Part shown: positions 10,735-40,513 of the stretch, in pieces
Position numbering within the stretch: position 1 is the stretch's first letter
How the letters are laid out: the number at the start of each line of letters is the position of its first letter
NCBI GenBank assembly: GCA_041651115.1
Contig: JBAZJY010000002.1
Span: 350,855-414,854, forward strand
Reading direction: 5' to 3'
DNA length: 64,000 nt
Source: Candidatus Omnitrophota bacterium
GTDB lineage: Bacteria; Omnitrophota; Gorgyraeia; Gygaellales; Profunditerraquicolaceae
Program-made: the position numbers and the translations under genes
Notes under the pieces: generated by a model
What the model was told of the DNA's origin: nothing
Database searches by the model: none
Seen by the model: only the letters and a program-made list of their open reading frames with translations

Positions 10735-10747
10735 GCATAACGCCCCC

Positions 10748-10776: not shown

Positions 10777-10782
10777 TTAATT

Positions 10783-11036
10783 GCCGATAAAGGTAAACCC
10801 CGGGAAACCGGGGGGCGCAAAGCCTCAGGCCTAAGTTGCTCTACAAAGCCATATTCTTTGAGGAGGCGAGATCAAGAATAGCTCGGCATGTAGGGGCAAT
10901 ATGGTAGCTGGGTTGCCGAAACGCGAGGCCGCGAGTAGTTTAGATTTTGGCCTTTATCGGCGTTTTCATTTATCCGGCATATAAATTACTAAAAATCCCA
11001 ACAGGATCCCCCCAAGATTTTGTTGGGATTTTTTAT
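10783..11036 (+). ncRNA. Candidate structured small RNA, possibly 6S-like
   Basis: Promoter immediately upstream; long-range closing helix gccgataaagg (10783..10793) with cctttatcggc (10951..10961); intrinsic terminator hairpin plus T-tract at 10995..11040; no convincing ORF. Confidence 0.3.
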
Positions 11037-11095
11037 TTTAAAGTGTTATAATTAAACGAGCTAAGATAGATTATTCATACAGTTAAGGAGCAAAA

Positions 11096-11299
11096 ATGGC
11101 TATATCCGCTAAGTTGGCCCACGAGATAAAGAATTCCCTGGCAATAATCCTGCAGGGAGTTGAATGCTTAAGGAACAATGCCGTTTCCGCGGATGAAAGC
11201 ATGAAAACAGTAGTAAAATACATTGAAGAGGCGGCATTGAAGATTGATAAAGCCATAAAAGGAGGCGAAATTGACAAAGAAAAAGATCCTGATCATTGA
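11096..11299 (+). CDS. Stand-alone DHp (HisKA H-box) domain protein, 67 aa
   Basis: LAHEIKNSLAIILQGVECL matches the histidine-kinase H-box; there is no ATPase domain. Confidence 0.4.
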   Translation: MAISAKLAHEIKNSLAIILQGVECLRNNAVSADESMKTVVKYIEEAALKIDKAIKGGEIDKEKDPDH

Positions 11300-11651
11300 T
11301 GATGAAGAGGCTCTCACCCATCTTGTGAAGATGAATCTTGAAGCAACCGGCAATTATGAAGTAATGGCGGAAAACAGAGGGGCCAACGGGCTTGCAGATA
11401 TAAAATCGTTTAAGCCGGACCTGGTTTTATTGGATATTATCATGCCGGAGATAGACGGTTCGGACGTAGCCAGCCAGATAATGGCAGACCCGGAAACCTC
11501 CGGCACGCCGATAGTTTTTTTGACCGCGATAATCAGGAAAGAAGAGGCCGCGGCAAGCAAGGGGGTTATCAGCGGGTATCCTTTTATCGCCAAGTCCGTA
11601 AGCATTAAAGAGCTTATTGAGTGCATAGAGAAAAACGCGCGCAGGCAATAA
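11271..11651 (+). CDS. Single-domain response regulator (CheY-like REC)
   Basis: ILIIDDEE...DLVLLDIIMPEIDG receiver motifs. Confidence 0.8.
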   Translation: MTKKKILIIDDEEALTHLVKMNLEATGNYEVMAENRGANGLADIKSFKPDLVLLDIIMPEIDGSDVASQIMADPETSGTPIVFLTAIIRKEEAAASKGVISGYPFIAKSVSIKELIECIEKNARRQ

Positions 11652-11657
11652 AGGCCC

Positions 11658-13676
11658 ATGGAGCCCATTGACAAAGACCTGATATTGCGGCAGATCCCGC
11701 TGTTTGAGGCCTTATCGGCCGAAGAGAGCGAGCTGGTCAAGCCGCGGTCGGAGATCATTGAATACGGCAAGAACCAGGTAGTCTATGAAGAAGGCTCGCC
11801 TGCCGACGCATTTTATTGCGTTGTCCTCGGCAGGGTAGTGATCTACACGCGTGACCCATCCGGCAATGAGACAATCCTTGAATACCTGCATCGCGGAAAA
11901 TATTTCGGGATCATTTCGTTGCTTACCAATGACAGCCACTCGGTAAGCGCCCGCACGCTCAACGATTCGGCGCTGCTGGTCATTAAAAAGGAAGATTTTG
12001 ATTTTATACTTAAAAGTATCCCCAGGCTTGCCATAGACTTAAGCCTTACTCTTTCACGCCGCCTAAAAAATAAATCCGTCCACCAAAAAACGATCTTTGA
12101 AAGCACGATCGCCTCGGTATTCAGTTCCTACTCGCAGGCAGGCAAAACCGTTTATGCCCTGAACCTGGCGCTTAGCCTGCATAAGGAATCATGTAAATCG
12201 GTGTTGATCATTGATATCTGCGCCGAAGATGCAATCCACAGCCTGCCGCAGAAACTCGGGGTAAGCGCAGAGTATAAAGTTGTTGACCTTTCGGCGTTAT
12301 CCGGAAGCCCTGCGGATATAGTAAAGGCATCCATCGTAAAGAGCGCTTACGGCGCCGACCTTGTTTGTATAACTTATGCAGCGGAAGACGAATCAAGCCT
12401 GAAAAAACTCCTGGCTGTTTTAAGCCAGATGATAAACGATTATCATTACATCATCCTTGACCTGCCTTCGTCCATGGACCAGTTTGTGCTTGGCGCGCTG
12501 AACCAGTCTGACTTTATACATATATTGACCAGCCCCCAGGCAGTTGATTTGAAGAAGACGCATAACCTCATCAATCGGCTTAAGGATGATTTTCATTTCC
12601 AGGAAGCAAAGATCAGGGTAGTCATTAATGAATACAAGCTTTCCAAGATCAATTACCAGGAGCAGCGGGAGATCGTAGGTTTTAATATCCACGCGACCCT
12701 GCCGCGAATGGCGCTTGAATCATCCGACAGACTGGTGCTTGACGATCCGCTCTCGGAATATGCCAAGGCAGTAAGGAGGATCAGCCGGCAGCTGGCAGAT
12801 AACCTTGTGGGCCTGGCGCTGGGCATAGGCGTGGGTTACGGGTTCTGCCATATCGGCGTGCTTAAGGTTATTGAAGAGGAAAATATCCCCATAGACGTCA
12901 TTTCCGGATCAAGTATCGGTTCGCTGATTGCCAGCCTATGGGCAACCGGCAGGAGCGCTCAGGAAATACTTGAGATCATTAAAGAGGAGTTTAAACAACC
13001 CAAATATACATGGGGCCTTATTGACCTTACTTTTCCGTCGCTGGGTTTTATCAGGGGCAACAAGCTTTACAAATTTCTCAAAAAATATCTAGGCAGTAAG
13101 ACTTTTTACGACGTGCGGCTGCCGCTGAAGATCATTGCCAGCGATATCCGCAATAAGGAGCCGCGCGTGCTTGACAAGGGGCTCTTGATTGACGCGATCA
13201 TGGCAAGCTGCGCGATGCCCGGGGTTTTCCAGCCGTTTAAACTTAAGGAAGAATTGCTGCTTGACGGCGGAGTGATCAATCCCCTGCCGACGGAAGTGCT
13301 GTTTAAAATGGGGATCCGCAAAATTATCGCAGTCAACGTGACTCCCTCAAGGGAGGATATTTTAAAGCAATACGAGAGTTTAAAAGAACAATTTGCCTTA
13401 GCCGGCAAAGAGATCAAAAAAGGCAACTGGTTTAACCTGAAACATTATCTGCAGAAGAAATTCAGGACGAACATCCTGGATATAATCTTTAGCAGCGTTG
13501 AGTTGATGCAGTCGGAGATAATACGCAGGGAAGTCCTGCTTGCCGATGTTGTCCTGCATCCGGATACCAGCGGCCTGCATTGGCTTGAGCTTTACCGCGC
13601 CGTGGAATTTGCCCAGCGCGGGGAAAAAGAGGCGCGCGCCAACCTTGACAGGATCAAACAGATGTTGAATGAATAA
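11658..13676 (+). CDS. cNMP-binding domain / degenerate ParA-MinD-like / patatin-like phospholipase
   Basis: N-terminal cyclic-nucleotide-binding beta-barrel motifs (GKYFGIISLL); central SQAGKT plus ILDLP P-loop-like region; C-terminal GxGxxG, GSSIG (GxSxG) and DGG motifs of the patatin family. Confidence 0.8.
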   Translation: MEPIDKDLILRQIPLFEALSAEESELVKPRSEIIEYGKNQVVYEEGSPADAFYCVVLGRVVIYTRDPSGNETILEYLHRGKYFGIISLLTNDSHSVSARTLNDSALLVIKKEDFDFILKSIPRLAIDLSLTLSRRLKNKSVHQKTIFESTIASVFSSYSQAGKTVYALNLALSLHKESCKSVLIIDICAEDAIHSLPQKLGVSAEYKVVDLSALSGSPADIVKASIVKSAYGADLVCITYAAEDESSLKKLLAVLSQMINDYHYIILDLPSSMDQFVLGALNQSDFIHILTSPQAVDLKKTHNLINRLKDDFHFQEAKIRVVINEYKLSKINYQEQREIVGFNIHATLPRMALESSDRLVLDDPLSEYAKAVRRISRQLADNLVGLALGIGVGYGFCHIGVLKVIEEENIPIDVISGSSIGSLIASLWATGRSAQEILEIIKEEFKQPKYTWGLIDLTFPSLGFIRGNKLYKFLKKYLGSKTFYDVRLPLKIIASDIRNKEPRVLDKGLLIDAIMASCAMPGVFQPFKLKEELLLDGGVINPLPTEVLFKMGIRKIIAVNVTPSREDILKQYESLKEQFALAGKEIKKGNWFNLKHYLQKKFRTNILDIIFSSVELMQSEIIRREVLLADVVLHPDTSGLHWLELYRAVEFAQRGEKEARANLDRIKQMLNE

Positions 13677-16671: not shown

Positions 16672-16746
16672 GCCGAGGTAGCTCAGTGGTAGAGCGCGGC
16701 CCTGAAAAGGCCGGCGTGGGGGGTCCGATTCCCTCCCTCGGCACCA
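16672..16746 (+). tRNA. tRNA-Phe (anticodon GAA)
   Basis: Cloverleaf folded by hand: acceptor GCCGAGG/CCTCGGC, D-arm GCTCAGTGGTAGAGC, anticodon loop CTGAAAA, CCA encoded. Confidence 0.85.
16724..16743. repeat. attL: 20 bp core (tccgattccctccctcggca) inside the tRNA-Phe 3' end
   Basis: Identical 20-mer recurs at 33650..33669. Confidence 0.8.
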
Positions 16747-16919: not shown

Positions 16920-18044
16920 ATGAAAATTCAGGAACTGAGGGAAGATTTAACAGTTTTAGGGTTAGGGGATAATCTTAATTTAGCTGTATTGCTATATTTA
17001 TCCGCAACAGCCAGAAAGACCTCGTGCAAAATCTCCGTTCTTGTTTCCGGCCCTGCAGGATTAGGTAAATCTCATCTTGCCAAGAAGATATTAGAATTAT
17101 TCCCGTCAGAAGATATTATCGTAAGCTCCCGGATGACCCCCGCCGGTCTTATGGGGCTTGAAGATTTAAGGGGCAAGATCCTGTTTATTTACGAACGTTT
17201 TGAAGATCCGCTATTTGCTCAATACATTCGGGAGCTGATGACAGAGGGAGAAGTCAGGTATACCACGGCAGACGGCGAACGGTGTCTGAAGGGCCCGGTT
17301 ACCTTAATCGAGACTACCGTTAATCACAACATCATAGGTGCCGAGAACAGGTCGAGGTGTTTTGTGGTCGGCATAAATACTTCTCTCGAAGCAAAAAATG
17401 GAATTCTGGAGAAGCAGAAGGCGTTAAGAACCATGGAAGGTTTTCGTTATCAGGAGAATTTTGATTCTATTCAGAAAAAGCATAGGGAATTCCACCAAGG
17501 GTTAGACGAGTCTTTGTGGGTTATAATTCCCTTTGCGAAGAATATCAAATTTCAAGCCTCTCCGCATCACGCCCCGCGGATACTCCAGCGTGTCCTCAAT
17601 GTTATCGCAACTATAGCATATCTAGACCAGAATCCAACTCGTGTCGTCACTGAAGGCGGCACACGCTACATTGAAGCTACAACGACTGATTTCGAAGAAG
17701 CAAGGCAGCTACTTACCAATATTCCTATTGAAGAAGACGGTTCTCTGCTTTCTTATAAGGAGGTGGAATTTATTAATATGCTAAGAAGTCAAAGAGAGAG
17801 GCTGTCCAGAAAAACCTTTTTTTCGCGCAATGATTTATTGAATGCGTTGCCTCAAGAGAGCCCTTACAGGAGCTATAAGGTTGTTTCTAAAATCCTTGCT
17901 ACCATTAGTAGGCTTGGTTTCATTGATGAACTTCCGCTGCGGGGGATAAAGAATAGGGTAGAGTATCGTTTCAATAAGGAGTTTCCGTATATGTCTGAGG
18001 GGAATTCGATGTTGACGTGCTACTCAACGCTGAGTTTGGCGTAG
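16920..18044 (+). CDS. SF3-helicase-like P-loop NTPase (phage/plasmid primase-associated type)
   Basis: Walker A GPAGLGKS, acidic Walker-B-like FIYERFED, TTVNHN motif-C-like; first gene of the island. Confidence 0.5.
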   Translation: MKIQELREDLTVLGLGDNLNLAVLLYLSATARKTSCKISVLVSGPAGLGKSHLAKKILELFPSEDIIVSSRMTPAGLMGLEDLRGKILFIYERFEDPLFAQYIRELMTEGEVRYTTADGERCLKGPVTLIETTVNHNIIGAENRSRCFVVGINTSLEAKNGILEKQKALRTMEGFRYQENFDSIQKKHREFHQGLDESLWVIIPFAKNIKFQASPHHAPRILQRVLNVIATIAYLDQNPTRVVTEGGTRYIEATTTDFEEARQLLTNIPIEEDGSLLSYKEVEFINMLRSQRERLSRKTFFSRNDLLNALPQESPYRSYKVVSKILATISRLGFIDELPLRGIKNRVEYRFNKEFPYMSEGNSMLTCYSTLSLA

Positions 18045-18080: not shown

Positions 18081-18815
18081 TTGAAATTAGTTAGGTTAAA
18101 AATTTTAGTTTTGCCAGTTTTCACAAAAGAAAGGAATGACAAAATGGAAGACTTTAGAATTAAATACCGGCCACAAGATATGTCAGAAATTTGGGGCAAT
18201 GAATGTTTGAAAAAAAGATGGGCTGGGTATCTAAGGAGAAAATCTCCGCCTAAATCCATAATCTTGCACGGTAACTACGGCGTAGGCAAAACTACCCTAG
18301 CAAGGATTATTGGAGGGGATATCTTAAAACTCAGAGATAATAATTTTGGTTTATCTGGGGGTTTTCACGAATTGGATTCAACTAAGCTTGATTCTGAAAA
18401 CCTAAGAGGGTTTTTATCTAAGATTACGGGATATGTTCATGGAACTACGGTGTTGTTTTTTGACGAATTCCAAAGGATGCCCCCAAAGGCCCAAGAGATA
18501 CTTTTAAAGCCCGTTGAAGAGGACGACGATCTGTTTTGTGTCTTTGCAACAACGGATATGAACAGCATAGACGGCGGTATCCAATCAAGAAGCGATAAAT
18601 TCATCATCCAAAAACCCTCAATGGCGATCCTGATAGAGAAGCTTACTGAAATAGCCGAAAAAGAGGATATTGAGATTACGAAGGAAGCCTTGGGGTTTCT
18701 CATCGAGTTAGCTGATTATTCTCCACGCGAGTGCTTGGGGAATCTCTATTCTTTTGGGGGTTCCGATGGCATTATTGACGGAAAAGTGGTGCAACAATTC
18801 TTAAACCCTGATTAA
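18081..18815 (+). CDS. AAA+ ATPase, clamp-loader (DnaX/RFC-small)-like
   Basis: HGNYGVGKTTLARII Walker A, LFFDEFQRM Walker B, CVFATTD sensor-1. Confidence 0.6.
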   Translation: MKLVRLKILVLPVFTKERNDKMEDFRIKYRPQDMSEIWGNECLKKRWAGYLRRKSPPKSIILHGNYGVGKTTLARIIGGDILKLRDNNFGLSGGFHELDSTKLDSENLRGFLSKITGYVHGTTVLFFDEFQRMPPKAQEILLKPVEEDDDLFCVFATTDMNSIDGGIQSRSDKFIIQKPSMAILIEKLTEIAEKEDIEITKEALGFLIELADYSPRECLGNLYSFGGSDGIIDGKVVQQFLNPD

Positions 18816-19036: not shown

Positions 19037-20275
19037 TTGTCCGATTCAAAGAATAGAACTCCCCGGAGCCATATTTATAGGCGTCACAGGATGCACAGCC
19101 AGTCAATCATTGAACTGGAGCAGGCGATGCTGCCCGTCAAAGCGGCGATGCAGGCGCGCGGGCTCAATATCTGCTTGGAAAAATTAGATAGCCTAATCAA
19201 TAAGATTAACCATGAAAAATCAGACATAGAGTCTAACCTTCGCTCAAGCCTCGGCATTAAGGGCGAGATAAATTTCAACAGCTCAAAGGATATCGCGGTC
19301 ATTCTTTCCGCGGCCTTAGGGGTTAAATTGCTTAAGAGCCGCAGCGGTAGATTTATTACGAACAGGCAGGTTCTCCAAAATTTCAATAATCCTTTGACTG
19401 AAACTATTGCCCAATATCGCAACCTGCAAAAGATTTTGTCTTCCCTAACGGCTGTTTATGGAGCAACTGACAAAGCGGAAGCTAAACTATCCTGCATCTA
19501 TACTGATGATTGCCCCAGCGGTCGGCTTTATACCAAAAACTACAACATCCAAGGCATCGGCGAACTCTGCCGTGGTGTCGTTTATCCTGATGAGGGCTGT
19601 TCGTTTATCTTAGCGGACTACGATAGTTTTGAATTGCGAATTCTTAGCGCACTTGCCCACGATACCTATTTTAAAGACTGCTGGTCTAAAGGTTTGGATT
19701 TACACCGTAAAGTAGTCAGTGATATGAAAGGGATTCCCTACGAATCCGTAACTGCTAAGGAACGCAAACTCGGAAAATGTCTCAATTTCGGTCTTGCATA
19801 CGGTCAGGAGCCTCATGGATTGGCGCGTAATCTCCGTATTCCCGTTTCTGAGTCTTCTAAGTTAATGGCTGGCTATAAAAACAAGATTCCTAAGATTGAA
19901 GAATTTAAACGGGAGTCAATCCGTTCAGCGCATATCACCGGCTACACTAAGACTTACTACGGTCGCAAGCGCCTGCTTCCTGAAATCCTATCTTCTAATC
20001 TCCTCGATGCAAAGAAAGCTGAGCGGCAAGTCATTAATACCAAGATCCAAGGCACAGGGGCAGACATTGTTAAATTCAGCTTAGTTAAATTACATAACGC
20101 CGGGTTTAAAATAGACACCATGTTACACGACGGGATTTTAATTACGGTCTCAGACGATAAGGTCGACAGCAGCATTCAGAAGATCAGGGAAATTATGGAG
20201 ATAGAAATTGAAGGGATGAAATTTACTACTTCTATCAAAACCGGGAAGACGTGGGGCCAATGTCACCAATCTTAA
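19037..20275 (+). CDS. Family-A DNA polymerase, polymerase domain only (no exonuclease domains)
   Basis: Motif A ADYDSFELRIL, motif B KLGKCLNFGLAYG, motif C MLHDGIL; TTG start at 19037 or ATG at 19091. Confidence 0.75.
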   Translation: MSDSKNRTPRSHIYRRHRMHSQSIIELEQAMLPVKAAMQARGLNICLEKLDSLINKINHEKSDIESNLRSSLGIKGEINFNSSKDIAVILSAALGVKLLKSRSGRFITNRQVLQNFNNPLTETIAQYRNLQKILSSLTAVYGATDKAEAKLSCIYTDDCPSGRLYTKNYNIQGIGELCRGVVYPDEGCSFILADYDSFELRILSALAHDTYFKDCWSKGLDLHRKVVSDMKGIPYESVTAKERKLGKCLNFGLAYGQEPHGLARNLRIPVSESSKLMAGYKNKIPKIEEFKRESIRSAHITGYTKTYYGRKRLLPEILSSNLLDAKKAERQVINTKIQGTGADIVKFSLVKLHNAGFKIDTMLHDGILITVSDDKVDSSIQKIREIMEIEIEGMKFTTSIKTGKTWGQCHQS

Positions 20276-20293: not shown

Positions 20294-20427
20294 TTTTTAA
20301 CTTTTTTGGGCTGGCAAAAAGCTACCTGTTTATTGTGTATGGTCATAGTTTGACTTGTGCTGGGAGATTTTATGCTGATAAATGATTTTACCTTTTGAGC
20401 CAAAAATAACCCAACCTATGCCCTGTT
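20294..20427. repeat. 134 bp direct repeat, copy 1
   Basis: Perfect match to 24463..24596; contains promoter-like TTGACT-N17-TGCTGATAAAT. Confidence 0.9.
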
Positions 20428-20439
20428 AGAGTTTTTCTT

Positions 20440-20745
20440 ATGAAACTGTTACCGAAAGAACTGGCACAAAAGATACCTAATCTCTATTCGCAGGAATATA
20501 AGGGCGAAGAGGCGTTGGTTTATATTAAATTATTCGATCCCTGCAGTAACTGGGCATGGTTTGCCACGGAATTTGATGGTGAGGATACTTTTTTCGGATT
20601 AGTGATTGGCCATTTTACAGAACTGGGCTATTTCAGCTTAAAAGAATTAGAGAGTTTTCGCAACCGTCTTGGGCTGGGTATTGAAAGGGATTTGCATTTT
20701 ACACCTATGACTCTAAAGGAAGTGAGGGAAGTAAATGGCTGCTAG
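20440..20745 (+). CDS. DUF2958-like conserved phage/plasmid protein
   Basis: LPxLYSQE...KLFDP..NWAWFATEFDGEDTFFGLV..ELGYFSL.ELE....LGLGIERDLHF pattern recalled from plasmid/ICE proteins. Confidence 0.5.
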   Translation: MKLLPKELAQKIPNLYSQEYKGEEALVYIKLFDPCSNWAWFATEFDGEDTFFGLVIGHFTELGYFSLKELESFRNRLGLGIERDLHFTPMTLKEVREVNGC

Positions 20746-20793
20746 GTCTATATTTTTATTGATAATTATTCTGCCGGTAGTATCATAATTCCT

Positions 20794-21399
20794 ATGACAA
20801 TACAAGAGCGCTACGAAGCATTAAAAGGTAAAGTCGTTAAGAGAAAGAAGGAATTCGATTCCTTCATAAAGATGTTGGAGTCAGAGTCAAGTTGGCTCAC
20901 AAGTCCGGCAAGCACGAGGTTCCATTTGAACAAAGAAGGTGGGCTTTTGGAGCATAGTGTTGGCGTTACTGAAACTCTCCTGAAATTCAGAGAGTTCCTC
21001 GCTCCTCAAATATCAGAGGAATCTTGCGTAATTGTTGGGCTTCTTCACGATGTCGGCAAGATAGGCATGCCTGGCAAACCTAGGTATTTGAAGAATGATA
21101 ACCAATGGGAGATCGATAAACGAGGTATTACCTATAAGATCAACCCCGCAGAGGTAGATATGAATCTTGCCGCACGCAGCTTGTATCTCATTGCAAAATA
21201 TATCCCGCTTTCTGACTCAGAGGCCCAAGCTGTTCTTTATCACGATGGCCAATTTTTAGATTTTAACAAGGAAGTGGCGCATAAAGAGACGCCCTTGACT
21301 CTTTTAGCGCATTGGGCTGATTACTGGACGGCGCATATCTATGAAGAAGGCCGTAGCATTAATGAAGATAGTGATTATTATACTGGAGATAGAAAATAA
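20794..21399 (+). CDS. HD-domain phosphohydrolase
   Basis: H..H, LLHDVGK and a late D motif of the HD superfamily. Confidence 0.7.
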   Translation: MTIQERYEALKGKVVKRKKEFDSFIKMLESESSWLTSPASTRFHLNKEGGLLEHSVGVTETLLKFREFLAPQISEESCVIVGLLHDVGKIGMPGKPRYLKNDNQWEIDKRGITYKINPAEVDMNLAARSLYLIAKYIPLSDSEAQAVLYHDGQFLDFNKEVAHKETPLTLLAHWADYWTAHIYEEGRSINEDSDYYTGDRK

Positions 21400-21401
21400 A
21401 T

Positions 21402-22355
21402 ATGTATCAACCAATGCATTCAGATTTTCTTATACACTGGACAGGCAAGGACATTGATGCAAAATATGACCCTAGGTGGTATACAGGACATTCATCGCGG
21501 ACAAGTGAGAAGGCTATCAAGTTATATTTGCAGCGTCTTAAAGGCATCTTATACCACGGCTTGTGGATGACAAAGCGCAGAGAAGATGAGACGGTTGTTA
21601 TTTATGATAACAATGGGAAGAGAAGAAAAATTAAGAGACCAGAAACAGCGAGGATATGTTTTACTGAATTGCGGCTGTCTGACGCGCGGGCTCATGCGAA
21701 AAAGTTTGGAAGGTTAGGTATTGGATTTAAAAGATTTTTTGTATTCAACCTTTTAGGAGCTCCCGTGGTCTATTTTCATCCTCAGAGAGCTAACTGGTTT
21801 TTTCCTCCTTATTTCGACTGGTTCAAAAAGATTGGCAAGGAAGCGTATTTCTCATGTTTTTTGAAAAAGATGGGGGAGAAAGATAGGAAAGACAGGACTT
21901 GGAAGTATAAGTTTTTCGATGAATCAGAATGGCGCGTAGTGTATTCTCCAGAGATTAAAGAAAAATTAGTAAGTATGGGGAGAACTGATGTATGTTCCGG
22001 ATTTAAAGAATCCGGAGATAAAGAATTTAAGAGGCTTGAAAGATATTTAGAAAAGACTGGCATAAAGGAGAGGCCGAGTTATCTCATTCCTATAAATCCA
22101 TCTCGGTGGTTCGCTATGATCATTTATCCTAGTTTAGCTGTAAAAGTCATAGCCGAAAGGGATCCCGATATTAGAAGAATTATAAATAAACTGAAATCTG
22201 GCAGAGAGAGCGTGGATGGGATGGAAGCAACCATCAGCAAAGATTGGCCATCAGGGGTATCTTCCGTCGGAGCTATCGGGAAGGCCAAATCGGCTTCCCT
22301 TGAAGATTTTAATCTGCCAATTCAGATTGACTTAGACGCTTGTAGAAATTTCTAG
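21402..22355 (+). CDS. Hypothetical protein (317 aa), function unknown
   Basis: ORF translationally coupled to the HD gene (stop and start 2 nt apart). Confidence 0.5.
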   Translation: MYQPMHSDFLIHWTGKDIDAKYDPRWYTGHSSRTSEKAIKLYLQRLKGILYHGLWMTKRREDETVVIYDNNGKRRKIKRPETARICFTELRLSDARAHAKKFGRLGIGFKRFFVFNLLGAPVVYFHPQRANWFFPPYFDWFKKIGKEAYFSCFLKKMGEKDRKDRTWKYKFFDESEWRVVYSPEIKEKLVSMGRTDVCSGFKESGDKEFKRLERYLEKTGIKERPSYLIPINPSRWFAMIIYPSLAVKVIAERDPDIRRIINKLKSGRESVDGMEATISKDWPSGVSSVGAIGKAKSASLEDFNLPIQIDLDACRNF

Positions 22356-22371
22356 AAACTAGAAAGGCAGT

Positions 22372-23136
22372 ATGAATATACTTATTACAAATGACGATGG
22401 TATCAATTCTGATGGTATCTTCACTTTGTTCGAAGCGGTTAAAGAGCTTGGTAATGTAACCGTTGTAGCCCCTGATTCAGAACGAAGTGCCGCGGGCCAT
22501 GCTATAACGATATCCGATCCTTTGCGCGTGAAGACAGTGAACCGTAACGGTAAGTTTTTTGGATATGCGTGTTCAGGGACACCGGCGGACTGCGTCAAAC
22601 TAGCTGTAAGGGCATTGATGAAGGATAAACCCGACATAGTCATATCCGGGGTTAATCTGGGCCCAAACACTGGTTTTAGTGTTTTATACTCTGGTACGGT
22701 ATCAGGAGCAACTGAGGGTGCAATATTAGGCATACCAGCCTTTGCAATATCTCTGGGAACTTTCGATAACCCTGATTTTAGTATAGCAGCTGAATTTGCC
22801 AAAAAATTAGTAGTTCTGCTTAGAGAAAAAGGTCTTCCGAAGGGAACCCTGTTAAATGTCAATATCCCTGCTGTAAAAAATAGAAATGATATCAGAGGCA
22901 TAAAGGTTACTACTCAAAGCAAGACTTCATTGGTAGAGCATTTCGATAAGCGGGAGGATCCCCGTAAACACGTCTATTACTGGCTTACAGGTGAGCTGAT
23001 AGAGTTGGACGGGGAGGAAGATAGTGACATCAAAGCACTACGGGATAATTTTATCTCCATAAGCCCCGTTCATTGTGATATGACTAACCGCGCCTTTATC
23101 GATGAGCTAAAGAAGTGGGATTTTGAGAGGCGTTAA
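22372..23136 (+). CDS. surE: 5'/3'-nucleotidase SurE
   Basis: MNILITNDDGINSDGI N-terminus and a SurE-like core. Confidence 0.85.
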   Translation: MNILITNDDGINSDGIFTLFEAVKELGNVTVVAPDSERSAAGHAITISDPLRVKTVNRNGKFFGYACSGTPADCVKLAVRALMKDKPDIVISGVNLGPNTGFSVLYSGTVSGATEGAILGIPAFAISLGTFDNPDFSIAAEFAKKLVVLLREKGLPKGTLLNVNIPAVKNRNDIRGIKVTTQSKTSLVEHFDKREDPRKHVYYWLTGELIELDGEEDSDIKALRDNFISISPVHCDMTNRAFIDELKKWDFERR

Positions 23137-24206
23137 AATATATTAAAGGCCCGGCTGCAACCCAAGCTTTTGTTTTTTAAATACCAGCCTAAATTATCCA
23201 ATTCTCTATTGTCTTTTACGATCTGTTCGTAAATGTCCTCCCAAGTCAGATGGGTAAACCGCTTTTTGTATTCAGCTTTTAACATAGAGCGGACATTACG
23301 CATAACAGGCATGCTTTCAGGCTCGCCGCGCTTTAAATTCATCGCGTGCCTGTTCCTTAAGTTCACTACATACCATCTTTTCGCGCCTTCCAAATGAGCC
23401 ATTGATGCAGCGAATACAATATTCCTAAATAGCTGCTCGTAGAATGGGTTCGGCATATCACTAAAATCAAATATGCTGTTAGTATCTATTAGTTTGTTAT
23501 GGGTGCAGTATCTCGTTATTGACCTATCTGCTGCTTTTGGCTTTTCGCCCTCAACATCTTCTTTTTCTTTTGCTATAGAGTTTTTACTCCCAAACTTAGC
23601 CTCTATACATATGATAACCTTATTCGGGACGACAAGCATTATGTCCGGTTCAGTAGCGAATCGCTTTATATCACTTTCAAGGTGCTTGCGAACATCTAAT
23701 AGAGGGGCGTAAGGCGTGAATTTATTGTTTTTAAGATCAATCTTTCCGCCCCACAGATACAAGTCTACCTTATCCTTTATATCTTCATTGATTATTTGGC
23801 TCGCTAGTTTATTTAGCGCCAGTCCGTTTGATAGTAGCTCCGTAAATACATTGTAAGATACCGCATCTTCGCTGTTTTCATAGCACAGCCTTCCAGATTC
23901 CATTTTGTTGCCTTTTTTGAAGAAATTTGCTATGTAGTATTCTCCATTGAATAATAAATTACGCTTGGTGGCGGTCAGCAGGTTTGAGTCAAAGGGCCCA
24001 TTATAATATACGAATCCATTGGTATGTATCCGCAGGCCGTGTTCAGGGCAGAAGGGTAAATATCTCATTTTACCCTTGAAGCGCTGGAAGGGAACCTTAT
24101 GGCTATGGGTATCTGATGAGCAGTTTTTGATTGGGCAGCTATTAGGAAGTCTCGTTTTTTGAAGGTCGTTTCTGAAGAATGATATTGTGCAGCTTGAATC
24201 GGGCAT
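23133..24206 (-). CDS. PD-(D/E)xK-type nuclease with N-terminal Cys-rich (Zn-ribbon-like) region
   Basis: PDIMLVV...IICIEAKF matches a D..(D/E)xK core; CPIKNC...CPEHG; convergent with surE. Confidence 0.5.
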   Translation of the reverse strand: MPDSSCTISFFRNDLQKTRLPNSCPIKNCSSDTHSHKVPFQRFKGKMRYLPFCPEHGLRIHTNGFVYYNGPFDSNLLTATKRNLLFNGEYYIANFFKKGNKMESGRLCYENSEDAVSYNVFTELLSNGLALNKLASQIINEDIKDKVDLYLWGGKIDLKNNKFTPYAPLLDVRKHLESDIKRFATEPDIMLVVPNKVIICIEAKFGSKNSIAKEKEDVEGEKPKAADRSITRYCTHNKLIDTNSIFDFSDMPNPFYEQLFRNIVFAASMAHLEGAKRWYVVNLRNRHAMNLKRGEPESMPVMRNVRSMLKAEYKKRFTHLTWEDIYEQIVKDNRELDNLGWYLKNKSLGCSRAFNIF

Positions 24207-24462
24207 AGGTTATTTTTCATTGTAGCTCCCTAAAATAATAAGGGAGCGCATATCTGCTACCGGCAACGTTCAAGTAAATCCGATAGAGCTGCATTTCTCC
24301 CTGCCCTTTCGGGCAACGAAACAGCTCCACCATACTTGAACGTTCACAGGGCTCTCCCCTGTGTTATGGTAGAAACGAACTGCTCCTGATTGTAAAAACT
24401 AACTAAAGTATATCAGCCGGTTAGGTTATTGTCAATTGAGCTATGTTAGGAAGCATAGTTAT

Positions 24463-24596
24463 TTTTTAACTTTTTTGGGCTGGCAAAAAGCTACCTGTTT
24501 ATTGTGTATGGTCATAGTTTGACTTGTGCTGGGAGATTTTATGCTGATAAATGATTTTACCTTTTGAGCCAAAAATAACCCAACCTATGCCCTGTT
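24463..24596. repeat. 134 bp direct repeat, copy 2
   Basis: Perfect match to 20294..20427. Confidence 0.9.
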
Positions 24597-24648: not shown

Positions 24649-24676
24649 TTGACTTTTTCAAAATGTAGCATATAAT
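24649..24676 (+). promoter_or_regulatory. Strong sigma70-like promoter (TTGACT, 16 nt spacer, TATAAT)
   Basis: Near-consensus hexamers read from the sequence. Confidence 0.55.
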
Positions 24677-24683
24677 TTTATTC

Positions 24684-24795
24684 AAGATACGATATAGTGG
24701 TGCGTTACGGAGAGGGAACCTCCACTTTAAAAAAGTAAAATCTCCACGAGCCGATTGCTCATGCACATTTGCGCTTGTGGGGATTTTTTATTTTA
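24684..24795 (+). ncRNA. Candidate sRNA (about 110 nt) with its own promoter and intrinsic terminator
   Basis: No ORF; internal ggagaggg/cctcc hairpin; terminator stem tctccacgagc/gcttgtgggga plus TTTTTTATTTT at 24741..24795. Confidence 0.4.
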
Positions 24796-24911
24796 TAGGG
24801 AAATTAGCTTGGTTAATTGACAAGACGAAAGGTAGGTGAATAATCTTTTAGGTATCTTGAGCGACCGAGTTTAAGTATAAAAACTATAAATATTGAAAAC
24901 GGAGGACTTAA

Positions 24912-27686: not shown

Positions 27687-27935
27687 TCAAGCTAATTTAC
27701 ACTCGAATTCATCTAAGTCCTGCCGGCTTTTAGCAATGATTTCTTTTATGCATGTCTGGCAGTAAACCTTTCTTCCCATGCTGCCGGGAATAGGAACTAC
27801 AATGCATACAGTTCCTCCGTAAATCGCTGTGTTGCACCTTTTGCAAGTTCGTTTTCCTTTTGCAGTGTCTAATTTTGGCGCTCCATGTGTTCCATTGATA
27901 AGAGAAGGACATTTTCCACGTTTTTTACTTATCAC
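27687..27935 (-). CDS. Small Zn-ribbon protein (82 aa)
   Basis: CKRCN...CIVV...CQTC Cys quartet; directly downstream of the helicase and overlapping it. Confidence 0.45.
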   Translation of the reverse strand: MISKKRGKCPSLINGTHGAPKLDTAKGKRTCKRCNTAIYGGTVCIVVPIPGSMGRKVYCQTCIKEIIAKSRQDLDEFECKLA

Positions 27936-29952
27936 CCTTAGCCTCCTTTTTAGTTAAGCGTCTTGTTAGGACATTGAGAATATTGTCAAGGGCTTCTATC
28001 GCTTTTACATAGTCTTCAGTTCGTAACTTTTCCCGTTCGCCTTTTTCAATTCCGAGCTGCTTATTTACCTCATGATTTATAAGTTGGACAGCGGCTGCAA
28101 AGTTAGGCCCAGTGACTCCACTACTCTGAGCAAGTTTATAGGCTAAATCTTTTCCGTCAAATGAGATGTCCAAGCGATTCAACAATAGTTTTGCCGCTCG
28201 TTTTACCTCTTCATGCAAACGTCGCTTCGCCTCGTTCCTTTGCCGTTGGGGAATTACAGGGAAAGGTATGGTGGATTCCACTTTGTTTATTTTATCCCCT
28301 TGTTTATTTTTGAGGAATTCTGCTATGTCTTGAGCATCAATTCCAAGTGACTCAGCGGTAGCTTTCATTTCTTCGATAAGTATCTCGTCTTCCACATCAA
28401 TGAAATGTTCCTGTAGGAAGCTATCCACTATTTCATTGCGAATGATCGTAGATTCACTAAGTTTTAATCTTGTACTACCTTCAAGCACCTCTCGAGGAGG
28501 CTCGGGTTCTTTGCCTTTAATAATATCTGTGAAGAATTCTCGGTCGTCCCTGTCAATTTCACGGAAATCAGCAAGATGGGTATCTATGTTAAGCCCAATA
28601 TGTGTTACTATGTGACCATAATTATCAGGGTGTCGAGGGTCATTTTGGACGATGACACGCATTACTCGACCAACGAATTGGACATACGGTGGTAGGGTGC
28701 GGAAAGGCCTAAATATAGCTGCAACACTTAAATGAGGGTGGTCAAATCCCTCGCCGAGCATTTGAACTTGGATAATACAATCTAAGGCGCCCGCTCTCAA
28801 TTTATTTAAGACAGCATCTTGCTCATCGGGTAGCATTTTACTATGGATTTCCGCTGCTTCATAACCACGCTCAGCATATAGAGAGCGTATTGCCTTTGCA
28901 TGATTTACTGAACACGCAACTGCTATTAGTTGGTGCTTTGTTCCAGATTGCCGCAGATGTTCGAGTTTGTCGAGACTTGCGTCTACGATATTTTTATTAC
29001 AGACTGGGGATAAAGCCACACCACGACTAAACCATTCTTCATCTTTTAACACCAATACTTCTTCAAGTGTGTGGTATTTTTCATCACCTTCATATGTAAA
29101 ATAGAGTTCTTTAGGTGCGACATATGTTGCCTGTAATTTTTTTATGTAGCCTTTTATCATTGCCCGTTTGAATGAATACTTGTAAATTAGTTCACCTTCA
29201 ATTTCTTGTTGGTCACTTCTGAATGGCGTAGCAGTTAAATTAACAACCTTTGCATCCGGGAATCTACTAAATACTTTTTTCCAACTCGGGGCCGCACTAT
29301 GGTGTCCTTCGTCTACCAGAATCATATCAAAGAAATTATTTGTAAACTGTGGGAGCCAGCGGTCGGCGCTACTCGCCAGTTGCTGTATATTTGTCAAAAC
29401 AAAATGCGACTGTTCGCAATCATGGATGTTGGCATCGATGCTATCGAGAATAGCAAGATACGGGCCGGCTAAGGTTACGTCCGGATTCAGCACCCGGCAT
29501 TTAAACCAGAAGCAGTTTCTACGATTGGCGATATCTAAAGCCTTTCTTAATTCATCTCTGATGGTGAGATTTGGCGCGATCACGAGGATCCTTCCTTGGG
29601 CAATTCCAAGTGGAAGTAACGTAATGAGCCCTGATTTTCCACATCCAACCGGTAATTGAATTAACGCTTTTTTGGCTCCTTTCTCGAAAAAATTACGGGT
29701 TGCTATGTATGCTTCTTTCTGTGGGTCTCTTAATAGTAAATTGTCTTCTATTTTGAAATCCAGCGAAGCAAAGAAATTACCCATGGATTTATTAGCTTTT
29801 ATCCACTTGTCTAATTCAAGAACTTGGAATCGCCACATTTTTCCTACTTTGTGAGCAGGTATCCGGTTGCTCTGCGCAAGTGCGTATAAATTCGTTATGC
29901 TGATATCAAGATATTTTGCTGCTTCCTCTGCGTTTAGCCATTCTTCTCTCAT
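27925..29952 (-). CDS. HTH (excisionase/MerR-like) + SF2 DEAH/ResIII-type helicase
   Basis: N-terminal LNAEEAAKYLDISITNLY...HKVG.MWRF HTH; Walker A PVGCGKSG; DEGH box; TATP motif III; QFVGRVMR motif VI. Confidence 0.75.
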   Translation of the reverse strand: MREEWLNAEEAAKYLDISITNLYALAQSNRIPAHKVGKMWRFQVLELDKWIKANKSMGNFFASLDFKIEDNLLLRDPQKEAYIATRNFFEKGAKKALIQLPVGCGKSGLITLLPLGIAQGRILVIAPNLTIRDELRKALDIANRRNCFWFKCRVLNPDVTLAGPYLAILDSIDANIHDCEQSHFVLTNIQQLASSADRWLPQFTNNFFDMILVDEGHHSAAPSWKKVFSRFPDAKVVNLTATPFRSDQQEIEGELIYKYSFKRAMIKGYIKKLQATYVAPKELYFTYEGDEKYHTLEEVLVLKDEEWFSRGVALSPVCNKNIVDASLDKLEHLRQSGTKHQLIAVACSVNHAKAIRSLYAERGYEAAEIHSKMLPDEQDAVLNKLRAGALDCIIQVQMLGEGFDHPHLSVAAIFRPFRTLPPYVQFVGRVMRVIVQNDPRHPDNYGHIVTHIGLNIDTHLADFREIDRDDREFFTDIIKGKEPEPPREVLEGSTRLKLSESTIIRNEIVDSFLQEHFIDVEDEILIEEMKATAESLGIDAQDIAEFLKNKQGDKINKVESTIPFPVIPQRQRNEAKRRLHEEVKRAAKLLLNRLDISFDGKDLAYKLAQSSGVTGPNFAAAVQLINHEVNKQLGIEKGEREKLRTEDYVKAIEALDNILNVLTRRLTKKEAKGDK

Positions 29953-30052: not shown

Positions 30053-30296
30053 ATGGGGTAGATATTTAAATCTAAAAGATTTCTTTGGGTAGCTGCGTTG
30101 AAATACTCAAGTTTTCTCTAAAAAACTTTTACCTTTTTAGCATAACTCCCCTCGGCATAAGCAGTTAGTAAATTCCTTCCATTCATTTCAGAGTTAATTT
30201 CCGTCGGTAAAATTACATAAAAGGTTAAAACTTTTTTACATTTTTCATTGACAAATAAGTACCATATGGTTCTTATATTGTTAGGAGGTGATTGTT

Positions 30297-31112
30297 ATGA
30301 ATTCCGACGAGATTGCGGTTGGCTATATACGAGTTAGCAGTATCAATCAGGTGGAAAATGGTGGTGGTTTGGCTATCCAGAGGAAGAAGATAACCAACTT
30401 CTGCAGAGAAAAAGGCTACAATCTAGAACGTTTCTACGAAGAAAGGGGAATTTCCGGCAGCATTAAAGAACGCCCTGCGTTATTAAGATTGTTAAAGGAC
30501 TGCGAGTCTGGTTTAATCAAAAGGGTAGTAGTTTTTCGTCAGGATAGGTTAGCTCGTGAATTAACAGTTTCCCTCTGGCTCGAGACTCAATTCAAGAAAT
30601 ATGATGTAGCAGTCAGCTCAGTTCTGGATCCAGAACTCGATATGAATGACCCGCTGCAGCTCGCTTTTAAAAGGCTGATTGATGTGTTTGCTGAATTAGA
30701 GAAAACACTTATTGTGACCCGTCTTAGAGAAGGCCGGGTTGATAAGGCCGAGAATGGACGTAGAGCTGTCGGTGCAATTGCTTTTGGCTATTATAAAGAG
30801 AAAGACGGTTTGGTTGTTAACCTTGAAGAATCCGAATGGGTGAAAAAGATTTTTCGGAACGCAGCTAAGGGAAAGAAATACTCAGAGATTGTGGCGATGC
30901 TTAAAAAGAACGGCGTAGTTACACGGCGAAAGAAACCGTTCAGTATTGAAACAGTTAAGTATGTCTTACGAAACTCTTTTTATTATGGTGAGTCAACCTA
31001 CGGCGATATAAAGAGCAGGGGGGAGCATAGGCCTATTATTAGTAAACGACTTTTTGTTAGAGTTCAAAAGGTCAAAAGGAAAGAAGTATTGTTACCAGCT
31101 AGGGTTTCGTAG
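30297..31112 (+). CDS. Serine recombinase (resolvase/invertase family)
   Basis: VGYIRVSS catalytic Ser motif, RLARE; RBS aggagg 8 nt upstream of ATG 30297. Confidence 0.8.
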   Translation: MNSDEIAVGYIRVSSINQVENGGGLAIQRKKITNFCREKGYNLERFYEERGISGSIKERPALLRLLKDCESGLIKRVVVFRQDRLARELTVSLWLETQFKKYDVAVSSVLDPELDMNDPLQLAFKRLIDVFAELEKTLIVTRLREGRVDKAENGRRAVGAIAFGYYKEKDGLVVNLEESEWVKKIFRNAAKGKKYSEIVAMLKKNGVVTRRKKPFSIETVKYVLRNSFYYGESTYGDIKSRGEHRPIISKRLFVRVQKVKRKEVLLPARVS

Positions 31113-32320: not shown

Positions 32321-32508
32321 GTAACCTTTTAACTCCAGAGCAAGTATGCGAGAGGTATGGTATAAGCCGGTGGACGCTCTATCAGTGGACATCCAAGCAT
32401 CTTATACCATATCTCAAGATTAGAGGGCTAAACCGTTTCAGGGAAGAAGATCTTGAGAAGTGGGAAGAACAAAATCTGGTAAGCGATGGGAAGGCTGAAT
32501 TGGTATGA
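32317..32508 (+). CDS. xis: Excisionase / AlpA-like HTH protein
   Basis: QVCERYGISRWTLYQW motif; immediately upstream of the integrase and overlapping it. Confidence 0.6.
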   Translation: MSNLLTPEQVCERYGISRWTLYQWTSKHLIPYLKIRGLNRFREEDLEKWEEQNLVSDGKAELV

Positions 32509-33572
32509 GACAGCGTTATCGAATGCCAAAATCTATTTACCCCCGTGGCAACTGGTATTGCTTTAAGGTAACTACTTCTTATGGCAAGAGAGTCGAGGTT
32601 AAGTCAGCCACCATGGAAGAGGCGCGTAAGAAACGCAACGATATAGAGCGTCAGATATTCAGTGCCGTGTCTGGAGATCCATCCTATAGAGTTAGCCTTG
32701 AGCATGGAATAGGGTTTTGGCTAAAAATTAAGAAAGGAAGTATCGACGATACCTCATATGATAGATACCGGGGATGTTTAGATAACTTCCTTGATTATAT
32801 TAAGGCAAAACGCTCCGATTTACAATATTTCGACCAAATAAAAGCGGAGGACATTAAGGCATTTATGGACTATCGGATCGAAGAGAAGGGGCGGGCGACT
32901 AAGACCGTGAATTCTGAAAGGCTGGCTTTATACAACTTATTTCTTACCTTGATTAAACATAAGAAAATTGAAGGTAGTAATCCCGTGGAAAATGTTGACC
33001 CATTAAAAATGATTAAGGTCCAAAAGAGGCATGCTCTTTCTGATGAGGAATTGTTGAAATTTCTTGAGGGTGCCAAGGCAGAAAGCGGGGCTATTAATTG
33101 GTATGCTATCTTTCTTACCTTATATATAACCGGCATGAGAAGGGATGAGGTTCGGAAGATGGAGAAAACAGCAATAGACCTGTCCAGAAATCTGATAATT
33201 ATTTTGAACACCAAAACCGATAAGCCAAAGATCATACCGATACATCCTGAATTGCGGCCAGTATTGCAGCAGGCGTTGGGGCAGTCCAATAGCGGCTTGG
33301 TATTTCCTAACTCTAAAGGCGGGCTGCTTCATAAGAACAAAATTCGGGATAAGATGATTCAGATATGTGAGAGGGTCGGTATCCCTAAAGCAACGGTTCA
33401 CGATTTACGCCATACATTCGCGAGCCGCCCAGAATTATCCGGTATGGCCAAGCAACTTATAGGCGGTTGGAGCAGCAAGCAGGTAATGGAGAAAACCTAT
33501 ATTCACGCCCCCGAGGATTATGTTCGAGATGAGTATTTTAAGGTTAAGTTCATACCGAAGGCAGGAAACTAA
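32505..33572 (+). CDS. int: Tyrosine integrase (phage integrase family)
   Basis: Conserved R...HDLRHTFAS...Y catalytic region; adjacent to attR. Confidence 0.85.
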   Translation: MRQRYRMPKSIYPRGNWYCFKVTTSYGKRVEVKSATMEEARKKRNDIERQIFSAVSGDPSYRVSLEHGIGFWLKIKKGSIDDTSYDRYRGCLDNFLDYIKAKRSDLQYFDQIKAEDIKAFMDYRIEEKGRATKTVNSERLALYNLFLTLIKHKKIEGSNPVENVDPLKMIKVQKRHALSDEELLKFLEGAKAESGAINWYAIFLTLYITGMRRDEVRKMEKTAIDLSRNLIIILNTKTDKPKIIPIHPELRPVLQQALGQSNSGLVFPNSKGGLLHKNKIRDKMIQICERVGIPKATVHDLRHTFASRPELSGMAKQLIGGWSSKQVMEKTYIHAPEDYVRDEYFKVKFIPKAGN

Positions 33573-40508: not shown

Positions 40509-40513
40509 CATTT

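Follow-up and report, generated by a model that had tools for sequence, protein, structure and literature searches.

Promoter-early stem-loop (PeSL) elements are mobile regulatory cassettes of T4-like phages, each combining a strong sigma-70 promoter with a terminator stem-loop (Arbiol et al. 2010, PMC2839356; Comeau et al. 2014, PMC4122927). The element described here, R, resembles a PeSL in being a short conserved intergenic motif that recurs in the direction of the genes, separating non-essential modules of a mobile genome, with copies in one genome similar enough for homologous recombination. In one pair of relatives (L170/L190) homology stops at R and gives way to different neighbouring genes, as happens at PeSLs. 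A mini-circle could also arise from two copies lying close together; a wrapped contig of 1.9 kb (L175) is compatible with such a circle and equally with graph ambiguity. R departs from PeSLs in having no canonical −10 hexamer, no stable conserved hairpin and no terminator. It is also longer (~110–130 nt), its home is an integrative island of a chromosome and not a lytic phage, and it has one copy, R1, at a fixed backbone position.

The KorB operator (OB) of IncP/RK2 plasmids is a 13-bp conserved site of dyad symmetry, present in several intergenic copies at variable distances from canonical promoters. R is likewise a repeated intergenic dyad near canonical promoters (its second copy here, R2, precedes a TTGACT-16-TATAAT promoter, and copies in islands L193 and L170 are comparable), but it is much longer than 13 bp, asymmetric and always co-oriented, and no ParB/KorB-like protein is encoded.

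Integron attC arrays share with R an arrangement in which co-oriented repeats of 60–140 nt separate gene modules close to recombinase genes. R, however, does not form the imperfect inverted-repeat fold of attC, and identity between its copies spans the whole element. Its modules are multi-gene, occupy both strands and have their own promoters, whereas integron cassettes are mostly single, promoterless and co-oriented genes; nor is there an integrase at the array head, the tyrosine integrase lying 8 kb away at the island end. The absence of a consensus structure and of an inverted repeat, together with the multi-gene, two-strand interval, speaks against R as an attC cassette boundary. Direct repeats bracketing a DNA segment within a tRNA-linked island also recall attL/attR. 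That assignment is not supported either, because no recombinase gene lies between the copies (20428–24462) and the repeat is not derived from, or related to, tRNA-Phe; unlike an attL/attR pair, homologous copies number up to six per island.

The repeat pair and its island

Within the window, the whole 64 kb stretch of DNA analysed, a repeat finder and an exact-pattern search both recovered the two 100% identical copies of 134 nt reported in the initial annotation. R1 (20294–20427) and R2 (24463–24596) form a direct repeat on the plus strand, 4169 nt apart from start to start. No third copy occurs in the 64 kb at ≤3 mismatches, and none of 100 shuffled sequences gave a match, indicating that the repeat is not due to chance. 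R1 starts 18 nt past the stop codon of a polymerase gene (polA) and ends 12 nt before the ATG of a DUF2958 gene. The edges of both copies are sharp and their flanks unrelated. Relative to the family consensus, R2 is truncated on its 3′ side, identity ending in CCCTGTT just ahead of a TAGAG box that R1 retains. Neither terminal inverted repeats nor a target-site duplication were seen at the ends of the two copies in the 64 kb.

The pair lies inside an island of ~17 kb adjoining tRNA-Phe (16672–16746, plus strand), its left border, in the order AAA protein, clamp-loader-like AAA protein, short PolA, R1, DUF2958, cargo, helicase, serine recombinase and tyrosine integrase. The backbone opens with a 374-aa P-loop protein (16920–18044, plus; weak AAA_22/AAA_16 matches), a 223-aa clamp-loader/RuvB-like AAA+ protein (18144–18815, plus) and a short family-A DNA polymerase consisting of the polymerase domain only (PolA; 19037–20275, plus). 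Homologues of this PolA are mostly annotated as Omnitrophota, and the island family probably belongs to these bacteria. Backbone genes of the right arm encode an HTH_17-ResIII helicase (27925–29952, minus; 73% nucleotide identity to L194) and a small serine recombinase of 271–274 aa (30288–31112, plus), and the tyrosine integrase (32505–33572, plus) marks the right end.

Domain assignments agreed with the earlier description of a single bracketed gene module and of its content. The module has five genes, distributed over the two strands, and a conserved promoter in its interior. The DUF2958 protein (20440–20745, plus; PF11171, E 1.5e-14), a backbone gene after R1 in most relatives with the PolA module, is followed by a 201-aa HD phosphohydrolase (20794–21399, plus; PF01966, E 1.6e-5) whose gene has 75% nucleotide identity to its L172 homologue. 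Then come a 317-aa AbiGi-like protein (21402–22355, plus; weak match of 26.9 bits against a cut-off of 22.4), a SurE nucleotidase (22372–23136, plus; E 2.7e-64) and, convergent with SurE, a 357-aa REase-ARP nuclease of the PD-(D/E)xK type (23133–24206, minus; PF22558, E 3.5e-11), whose PD...ExK residues are invariant in 22 homologues. In relatives the AbiGi-like gene is not found between HD and SurE, which marks it as a lineage-specific addition.

Both sides of R2 are occupied by predicted transcription units. The REase-ARP gene has a structured leader RNA of ~155 nt (24223–24376, minus) with no Rfam match, a candidate new cis-regulatory RNA; leader and gene share a conserved sigma-70 promoter, TTGACA-17-TATACT with TG (24407–24435, minus), whose −35 and the left edge of R2 are 28 nt apart. 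On the other side, 53 nt downstream of R2, the strong promoter TTGACT-16-TATAAT (24649–24676) precedes a hairpin-terminated transcript of ~115 nt (promoter and transcript together 24649–24797, plus).

R in related islands

Relatives with 57–68% identical PolA carry the same backbone and a homologous element of ~110–130 nt directly after PolA; backbone and synteny are kept in L006/L007, L170, L172, L190 and L194. Using an nhmmer core profile, we located R after PolA in 10 islands (L005, L006, L094, L170, L172, L173/L175, L190, L193, L194 and L009) and 24 copies overall in 12 islands, with one to six per island and the extra copies intergenic. Every one of the 24 lies on the gene strand, and three (L005 R1, L006 R2 and L193_b) are then followed by an oppositely oriented gene. 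In almost all relatives DUF2958 comes directly after a copy of R. No copy other than R1 is universal; it always abuts the replication genes, and it is the sole copy in L194, a minimal island with no extra cargo. The conservation of R in sequence blocks across islands with such divergent polymerases indicates selection on the element. A generic MITE-like repeat, expected at many unrelated loci, finds no support in the sequence covered: the window, 64 kb of a 487 kb contig, has two copies, an R 25-mer is absent from three public collections (viral, genome and metagenome), and the core profile is restricted to this island family, 1.28 Mb of control PolI loci yielding no match under E=5.

A second copy stands at the place equivalent to R2 in four islands (L005, L006/L007 and L172). 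Where the pair has diverged, the copies match over 111 nt at 77% in L006 and over 76 nt at 79% in L005 (77–80% overall), and the PolA of these relatives is only 61–68% identical to that of the window; pairs of this kind in two relatives indicate that the pair is ancestral. In L005, L006 and L172 the R2-type copy comes after the nuclease gene and a conserved HTH gene of the XRE type (71 aa), the latter missing at R2 of the window. Copies flank PolA in L172 and L173; in L173/L175 these are identical for >141 nt, and it is here that contigs are broken or wrapped. L170, L172 and L190 have extra copies among their defence modules, at distances of kilobases, and at the family level R does mark module borders, as the initial annotation had supposed in calling it a cassette boundary. 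Copies within an island are mutual best matches in the window, L005, L006, L173 and L193, with concerted evolution absent from L172. Only L170 and L190 are similar enough for a homology break at R to be seen. This island pair has in common a type I restriction-modification module and R; homology stops right after R, and different cargo follows.

These comparisons revise the proposed history of the pair. L006/L007 have DUF2958, SurE and REase-ARP downstream of PolA in an unchanged order, and HD and SurE recur in L172. Because DUF2958, HD, SurE and REase-ARP are thus syntenic with PolA in relatives, the module is not a foreign insert, and we rejected both the insertion option of the initial annotation and the view of R1 and R2 as the scars of an inserted cassette. 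The pair, being already present at equivalent positions in relatives, is old and was probably homogenized in this island. R1 and R2 are copies of a conserved non-coding element between gene modules of polymerase-carrying mobile islands. The requirement for a recent event behind their complete identity was upheld: the sequences point to recent gene conversion or re-duplication, and the missing HTH gene suggests that the event may exceed simple gene conversion. Looping out of the segment through 134 nt of homology also stands as a possibility.

Anatomy of R

R consists of three blocks. The first is a TTGAC(T) box (20350–20355, plus; 24519–24524 in R2) with the family consensus GTTTGACTTATAGGCGACG. 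The second and most conserved is the core TAAATGATTTTACCTTTTGAGCCAAAA (20379–20405, plus; 24548–24574 in R2; family consensus TAAAGGATTTTACCTTTTGAGCCAAAA), in which a dyad, AAAGG-N7-CCTTT, is followed by TTGAGCC. The third, yTAnnG-N6-TTAGAG with tandem TAGAG boxes (20415–20439, plus), runs into the ribosome-binding region of DUF2958, and its first half alone falls within the perfect 134-nt repeat. Across the alignment, 85% of the dyad cells are complementary and the right half is invariant; the left half is degenerate in the window copy. The repeat search detected no inverted repeat at R, and R contains no terminator-like site.

The TTGAC box is conserved and −35-like, and the initial annotation had read it as part of a promoter, TTGACT-N17-TGCTGATAAAT. 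The string is literally present, with TTGACT at 20350–20355, but a spacing of 17 nt leads to the hexamer TGCTGA, and a consensus promoter scan found no promoter-like site inside R1 or R2. The −35/−10 assignment is not sustained: no −10 hexamer lies 16–18 nt from either TTGAC-type box in the window copy, and none is conserved at that spacing across the 24 copies. Since neither box has a −10 at a consistent spacing, R cannot be shown to be a promoter, although the island has clear canonical sigma-70 promoters at other places. Such promoters occur 50–70 nt downstream of several copies (window R2, L193 and L170), consistent with R as an upstream operator.

Proposed role and alternative explanations

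By analogy with the PeSL cassettes of T4-like phages, R may be a protein-bound regulatory and junction element, the reading that we prefer and to which we give about even credence. In this reading R is a DNA element that acts in cis, conserved and fixed in orientation, in integrative islands next to tRNA genes, probably of Omnitrophota, that bring their own replication module (P-loop protein, clamp-loader-like AAA+ protein and short PolA). R1 lies between PolA and DUF2958, and further copies are placed before other transcription units and at the borders of cargo (defence) modules. We infer that R could act as a docking platform for a putative island-encoded DNA-binding protein and, as an operator or promoter-proximal control region, could bring several island operons under one regulator. 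Similar in sequence and pointing the same way, the copies would be substrates for homologous recombination; it would homogenize them within an island by gene conversion, the proposed cause of the R1/R2 identity, and would join and swap modules exactly at R. The same process could delete or circularize the 4.17 kb between R1 and R2.

A one-off recent event, in which a circular DNA with R and a 4 kb module entered through one crossover at R, or 134 nt were duplicated, leaving the repeats as functionless scars, seems to us unlikely. In its favour are the complete identity, sharp edges and unrelated flanks, the missing HTH gene beside R2, and the direct repeats of unrelated sequence that bracket REase-ARP genes in unrelated contexts (L090, L097, L145/L196 and L150). 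It is hard to reconcile with the synteny of the bracketed genes, with a second R at the same relative position in L005 and L006 (diverged) and also in L172, and with block conservation across the family.

We regard it as quite unlikely that R1 is the replication origin of an island replicon, composed of initiator-binding boxes and an A/T-rich stretch, with the extra copies as iteron-like control or titration sites. Although R1 is the sole universal copy and always lies against replication genes, copies flank PolA in L172 and L173, and R holds a dyad and tandem short boxes, the extra copies between defence modules lie kilobases off, every copy follows gene orientation, and no clustered iterons were seen.

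Co-oriented copies at module borders, a serine recombinase and a tyrosine integrase among the backbone genes, and a dyad core that could serve as a crossover site might instead suggest a recognition site for a site-specific recombinase (e.g. the ~271-aa serine recombinase), delimiting excisable or insertable cassettes in the manner of an integron or res site. This is improbable. In the window and in L170/L190, identity between copies covers ~85 nt left and ~30–45 nt right of the dyad, whereas hybrid att-type sites share the core alone, and an attC-like folded structure is absent. Direct res repeats should undergo resolution, but backbone genes are still enclosed by diverged pairs, and L006 and L172 carry R without a serine recombinase within 10 kb; in the window that gene is 6 kb from R and not adjacent.

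A role for R as a transcript, either a structured non-coding RNA or a riboswitch-like leader, is highly improbable and already largely refuted: its intergenic place upstream of genes would suit a leader and the single minus-strand sequence folds better than shuffles (z = −3.19), but the plus strand does not stand out (z = −1.18), RNAalifold on the 24 copies gave zero consensus pairs, the dyad has no compensatory change or covariation, and R has no Rfam match. An assembly error at the repeat, fusing chromosomal sequence with a circular element of 4.2 kb, might be suggested by breaks at the repeat in Logan k=31 contigs from the same organism, and by contig breaks and one wrapped contig at R in related islands. 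It is scarcely credible. The window lies on a MEGAHIT contig (k141), built with k=141 and thus with a k above the 134 nt of the repeat. A second contig with an identical REase-ARP protein keeps mostly the same neighbours and is probably an independent assembly, judging from the longest contig (579 kb) and the sources (JGI and ENA) listed for that protein cluster, and L006 and L007, from two other assemblies, show the same architecture with diverged repeats, which cannot mislead an assembler.

Beyond the PeSL-like reading, R copies might be the junction sites of a dedicated cargo-shuffling platform, in which defence modules would be captured, exchanged and excised as R-bounded cassettes, actively promoted by an island enzyme, either the small serine recombinase or REase-ARP through DNA breaks. 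REase-ARP is a widely mobile nuclease, and several unrelated genomes have it between direct repeats. We consider this reading as a whole unlikely; if true, the R platform of these islands would be a functional analogue of integrons, assembled from unrelated parts.

An identical repeat pair in a conserved island

The two copies of the repeat element R in the window, R1 (20294–20427) and R2 (24463–24596), are 134 nt each and identical. This bears out the initial annotation; no third copy was found at ≤3 mismatches in the window, nor any in shuffled sequence. The plus strand of the interval encodes a DUF2958 protein, an HD hydrolase, a 317-aa AbiGi-like protein and SurE, and the minus strand a 357-aa PD-(D/E)xK nuclease (REase-ARP). 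The arrangement is real, because the 487 kb source contig (MEGAHIT k141, ENA ERZ27247363) was built with a k-mer longer than the 134-nt repeat and a second contig encodes an identical REase-ARP protein among mostly the same neighbouring genes. In the Logan assembly of this organism, made at k=31, the break falls exactly on the repeat. The second contig is probably an independent assembly, given that the longest contig in the REase-ARP protein cluster reaches 579 kb and that its sources comprise both JGI and ENA.

The low-GC island around the repeats begins just after tRNA-Phe (16672–16746) and carries a tyrosine integrase (32505–33572) at its end. Its left arm runs from a 374-aa P-loop protein through a clamp-loader-like AAA+ protein and a short family-A DNA polymerase (PolA) to R1, followed by DUF2958, HD, AbiGi-like and SurE genes, REase-ARP on the opposite strand and R2. 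Beyond R2 lie a promoter with a small hairpin-terminated transcript, DUF2188, a membrane protein, a dGTPase-like HD protein and a further DUF2188; then an 82-aa protein and an HTH_17-ResIII helicase, both on the opposite strand, and lastly a small serine recombinase, HTH proteins and the integrase.

Contigs encoding PolA homologues, the nearest 68% identical, share this backbone, and the named homologues of both PolA and REase-ARP are annotated as Candidatus Omnitrophota. The minimal island L194 retains P-loop, AAA, PolA and DUF2958 genes, a short cargo, then helicase, serine recombinase, two HTH genes and integrase. The contig pair L006/L007 carries P-loop, AAA, PolA, DUF2958, a 166-aa protein and SurE, with REase-ARP on the opposite strand, and in islands L170, L172 and L190 PolA (with an HTH gene in L170) and DUF2958 precede cargo of restriction-modification, Abi, MazG, AAA_13/15 or TIR genes. 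Since backbone and order recur in relatives, comparative gene order identifies the genes between R1 and R2 as conserved left arm and not as a foreign insert, the AbiGi-like gene being the sole addition among them in the window's lineage. The observation behind the initial reading of a repeat-bracketed 4 kb cassette is confirmed and its interpretation partly supported: repeats and gene content stand, and insertion of a foreign cassette does not, the left-arm genes being conserved in relatives.

Collectively, these loci outline an apparently undescribed family of tRNA-linked integrative islands of ~12–17 kb, with their own short PolA, clamp-loader-like ATPase, helicase and two recombinases, and with variable cargo of restriction-modification, Abi, nucleotide-hydrolase and toxin genes. 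No description of the family was found in the literature searched, and nothing relevant on REase-ARP, DUF2958 or Omnitrophota PolA islands. The PolA profile scan of genome contigs was dominated by chromosomal PolI, with L009 and L010 as the only relevant loci; L010, from a Pirellulales MAG, also holds a CRISPR array (10117–11800; 36-nt repeats, about 24 units) 7 kb from its distant PolA-family homologue.

R as a family element

Diverged direct pairs that align with the window repeat occur in L006/L007 (111 nt, 77–79% identical; one copy right after PolA, the other after the nuclease gene) and in the island contig L005 (76 nt, 79–80% identical). A core-profile search placed R directly after PolA in ten islands and recovered further intergenic copies, with six in L172 and three each in L190 and L193; all copies lie on the gene strand. 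Run on unrelated PolI loci totalling 1.28 Mb, the same profile gave no match with E < 5; it missed a degenerate R1 in L170. L194 has R1 only.

R comprises three blocks: GTTTGACTTATAGGCGACG, ~20 nt, TAAAGGATTTTACCTTTTGAGCCAAAA, ~8 nt, and yTAGAG-N6-TTAGAGGG. The third block of each R1 copy extends into the ribosome-binding site of DUF2958, and in window R2 identity is lost exactly before this block. An exact 25-mer of R was absent from viral, genome and metagenome collections, a result that speaks only for near-identical copies. A 19-mer of the core gave 14 hits in viral contigs, none with island proteins and each confined to the 19-mer, and these were set aside as chance A/T-rich matches. Both repeats represent a cis element conserved across the island family and are not scars of a foreign-cassette insertion.

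In L005, L006 and L172 a conserved XRE-type gene of 71 aa stands between the nuclease gene and the second R copy; it is missing in the window, where no remnant was found between REase-ARP and R2 (24207–24462). Genes of this type (65–71 aa) lie at 5341–5556 in L005, 14105–14311 in L006, 15199–15414 in L172 and 14354–14551 in L194.

Candidate functions of R

An RNA reading was rejected. RNAalifold gave no consensus pair across 24 copies, and the AAAGG-N7-CCTTT dyad, although complementary in 85% of cells, has an invariant right half and hence no compensatory changes, which favours a site in DNA over a hairpin in RNA; no Rfam family matched R. The XRE-type HTH protein of relatives is a candidate binder of this dyad.

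The initial annotation had also placed a promoter-like sequence, TTGACT-N17-TGCTGATAAAT, within the repeat; this assignment fails, as TGCTGA occupies the −10 position. Neither TTGAC-type box of R has a −10 hexamer at conserved spacing, which speaks against a sigma-70 promoter through either box, and sigma-54, Bacteroidetes-type and minus-strand promoters were unconvincing on inspection by eye. The promoter scan found no sigma-70 promoter inside R, and located canonical ones in the window at 24649, 24817, 24435 (minus), 30006 (minus) and 31638 (minus). Several R copies lie 50–70 nt upstream of canonical promoters: window R2, and copies in L193 (before the promoter of the leader RNA described below) and in L170.

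Additional R copies mark borders between defence systems: type I restriction-modification/AAA_13, type I restriction-modification/AAA_15-DUF3226 and MazG/AbiJ. L170 and L190 share a type I restriction-modification module (74% identical) whose homology extends past hsdS to include the following R copy and ends right behind it, different genes following. The best match of an R copy is a copy in the same island in the window (100%), L006, L005, L173 and L193, and not in L172. In the island represented by L173, L174 and L175, the R copies on the two sides of PolA match without a difference over >141 nt (L173 9420–10010 against L175 1284–1875), and L173 and L174 both stop inside R. The 1.9 kb contig L175 wraps PolA-R-prePolA, the result either of an ambiguous assembly graph or of a PolA mini-circle.

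Together these observations fit an element that is bound by a protein, serves in regulation and as a junction, and recombines between its copies; such recombination would homogenise copies within an island and link modules at the 3' edge of the copies. Among described systems the promoter-early stem-loop (PeSL) cassette of T4-like phages comes closest (PMC2839356, PMC4122927), but R has neither a strong promoter nor a terminator hairpin, two of the PeSL criteria, and at most works like a PeSL without belonging to that class. A replication origin, a site-specific-recombination site and a one-off insertion are less probable readings. R has no terminal inverted repeats and no target duplication, is not tRNA-derived and brackets no recombinase. 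The attC and att readings were rejected on structure, content and copy distribution, which also make a MITE improbable.

Because diverged pairs occupy the same positions in relatives, the simplest account of the complete R1–R2 identity is recent gene conversion or re-duplication between them, and the same homogenising event may have removed the XRE gene from the window. A fresh single-crossover insertion at R is less probable: it would have needed to rebuild an arrangement that the ancestral islands already possessed.

A leader RNA upstream of a mobile nuclease gene

The 256-nt stretch that separates R2 from the start of REase-ARP is not spacer: its minus strand carries a conserved promoter, TTGACA-17-TGATATACT (24407–24435), and an RNA of ~155 nt (24223–24376). 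The region is 74–87% identical to upstream regions in L138 (912–1068, before REase-ARP), L170 (13275–13431, minus strand, before a 102-aa gene and REase-ARP) and L193 (11370–11520, before a 119-aa gene). RNAalifold predicted 45–47 pairs, with 96% of cells paired against 36–50% in slid controls and ten pairs changed on both sides against 0–2. A covariance model scored the four loci at 152–169 bits and matched L100 weakly (21.8 bits); no Rfam family matched, and the leader was not found in viral contigs or at the solitary REase-ARP locus L196. The comparative signal supports well a new structured RNA before the nuclease gene, a candidate cis-regulatory RNA.

Contig L002 of the k=31 Logan assembly ends at 24301, inside the leader's invariant stretch (24272–24301) and not at R2; a second leader copy therefore probably exists in that sample, another locus sharing the same 31-mer. 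On the minus strand, a 51-aa upstream ORF (24065–24220) overlaps the REase-ARP start in another frame and has a good GGGAG Shine-Dalgarno, supplied by the 3' strand of the leader's final hairpin. The REase-ARP start itself has no obvious Shine-Dalgarno sequence.

The PD...ExK catalytic residues of REase-ARP are invariant in 22 homologues, and the protein recurs at 56–75% identity in >100 clusters in many unrelated contexts. A profile scan of metagenome contigs returned 80 loci, most without PolA; being mobile on its own, REase-ARP is a poor island marker. In some unrelated contexts an individual REase-ARP gene, at times a solitary one, is flanked by direct repeats of 34–70 nt, 81–96% identical and unrelated in sequence to R: L090 (186–224/1341–1379), L097 (5173–5206/7179–7212), L145 (5605–5673/7086–7154), L150 (2349–2399/3642–3692) and L196 (9467–9535/10948–11016), the last with REase-ARP alone between housekeeping operons. 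Such bracketing suggests movement of the nuclease gene as a small repeat-bounded unit.

Other features of the window

Between R2 and the DUF2188 gene (24649–24797, plus strand), a strong, near-consensus TTGACT-16-TATAAT promoter (24649–24676) precedes a ~115-nt transcript with a long hairpin and U-run (fold z = −3.75), a possible small RNA; similarity to it was confined to 33 nt in L194/L195. Upstream of the island, the host region holds a c-di-GMP-I riboswitch (10782–10920, plus strand; 73 bits). A partial copy of a tRNA-Thr 5' end (40345–40371, matching 40425–40451) lies 80 nt upstream of the intact gene (40435–40510). Downstream of tRNA-Met (51712–51787), a second small low-GC islet (53808–55970) contains genes for an AIPR abortive-infection protein and a RES-domain protein, and a 20-aa fragment resembling the islands' XRE gene lies at 56006–56068 (minus strand).

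Implications

The multiple copies of R explain why assemblies break inside these islands. Its biochemical role is one that we infer from sequence; if R is an operator, one regulator would act jointly over replication-proximal and defence genes. A junction element at every module border would offer a concrete handle on how defence cargo is assembled and reshuffled in a poorly known phylum.
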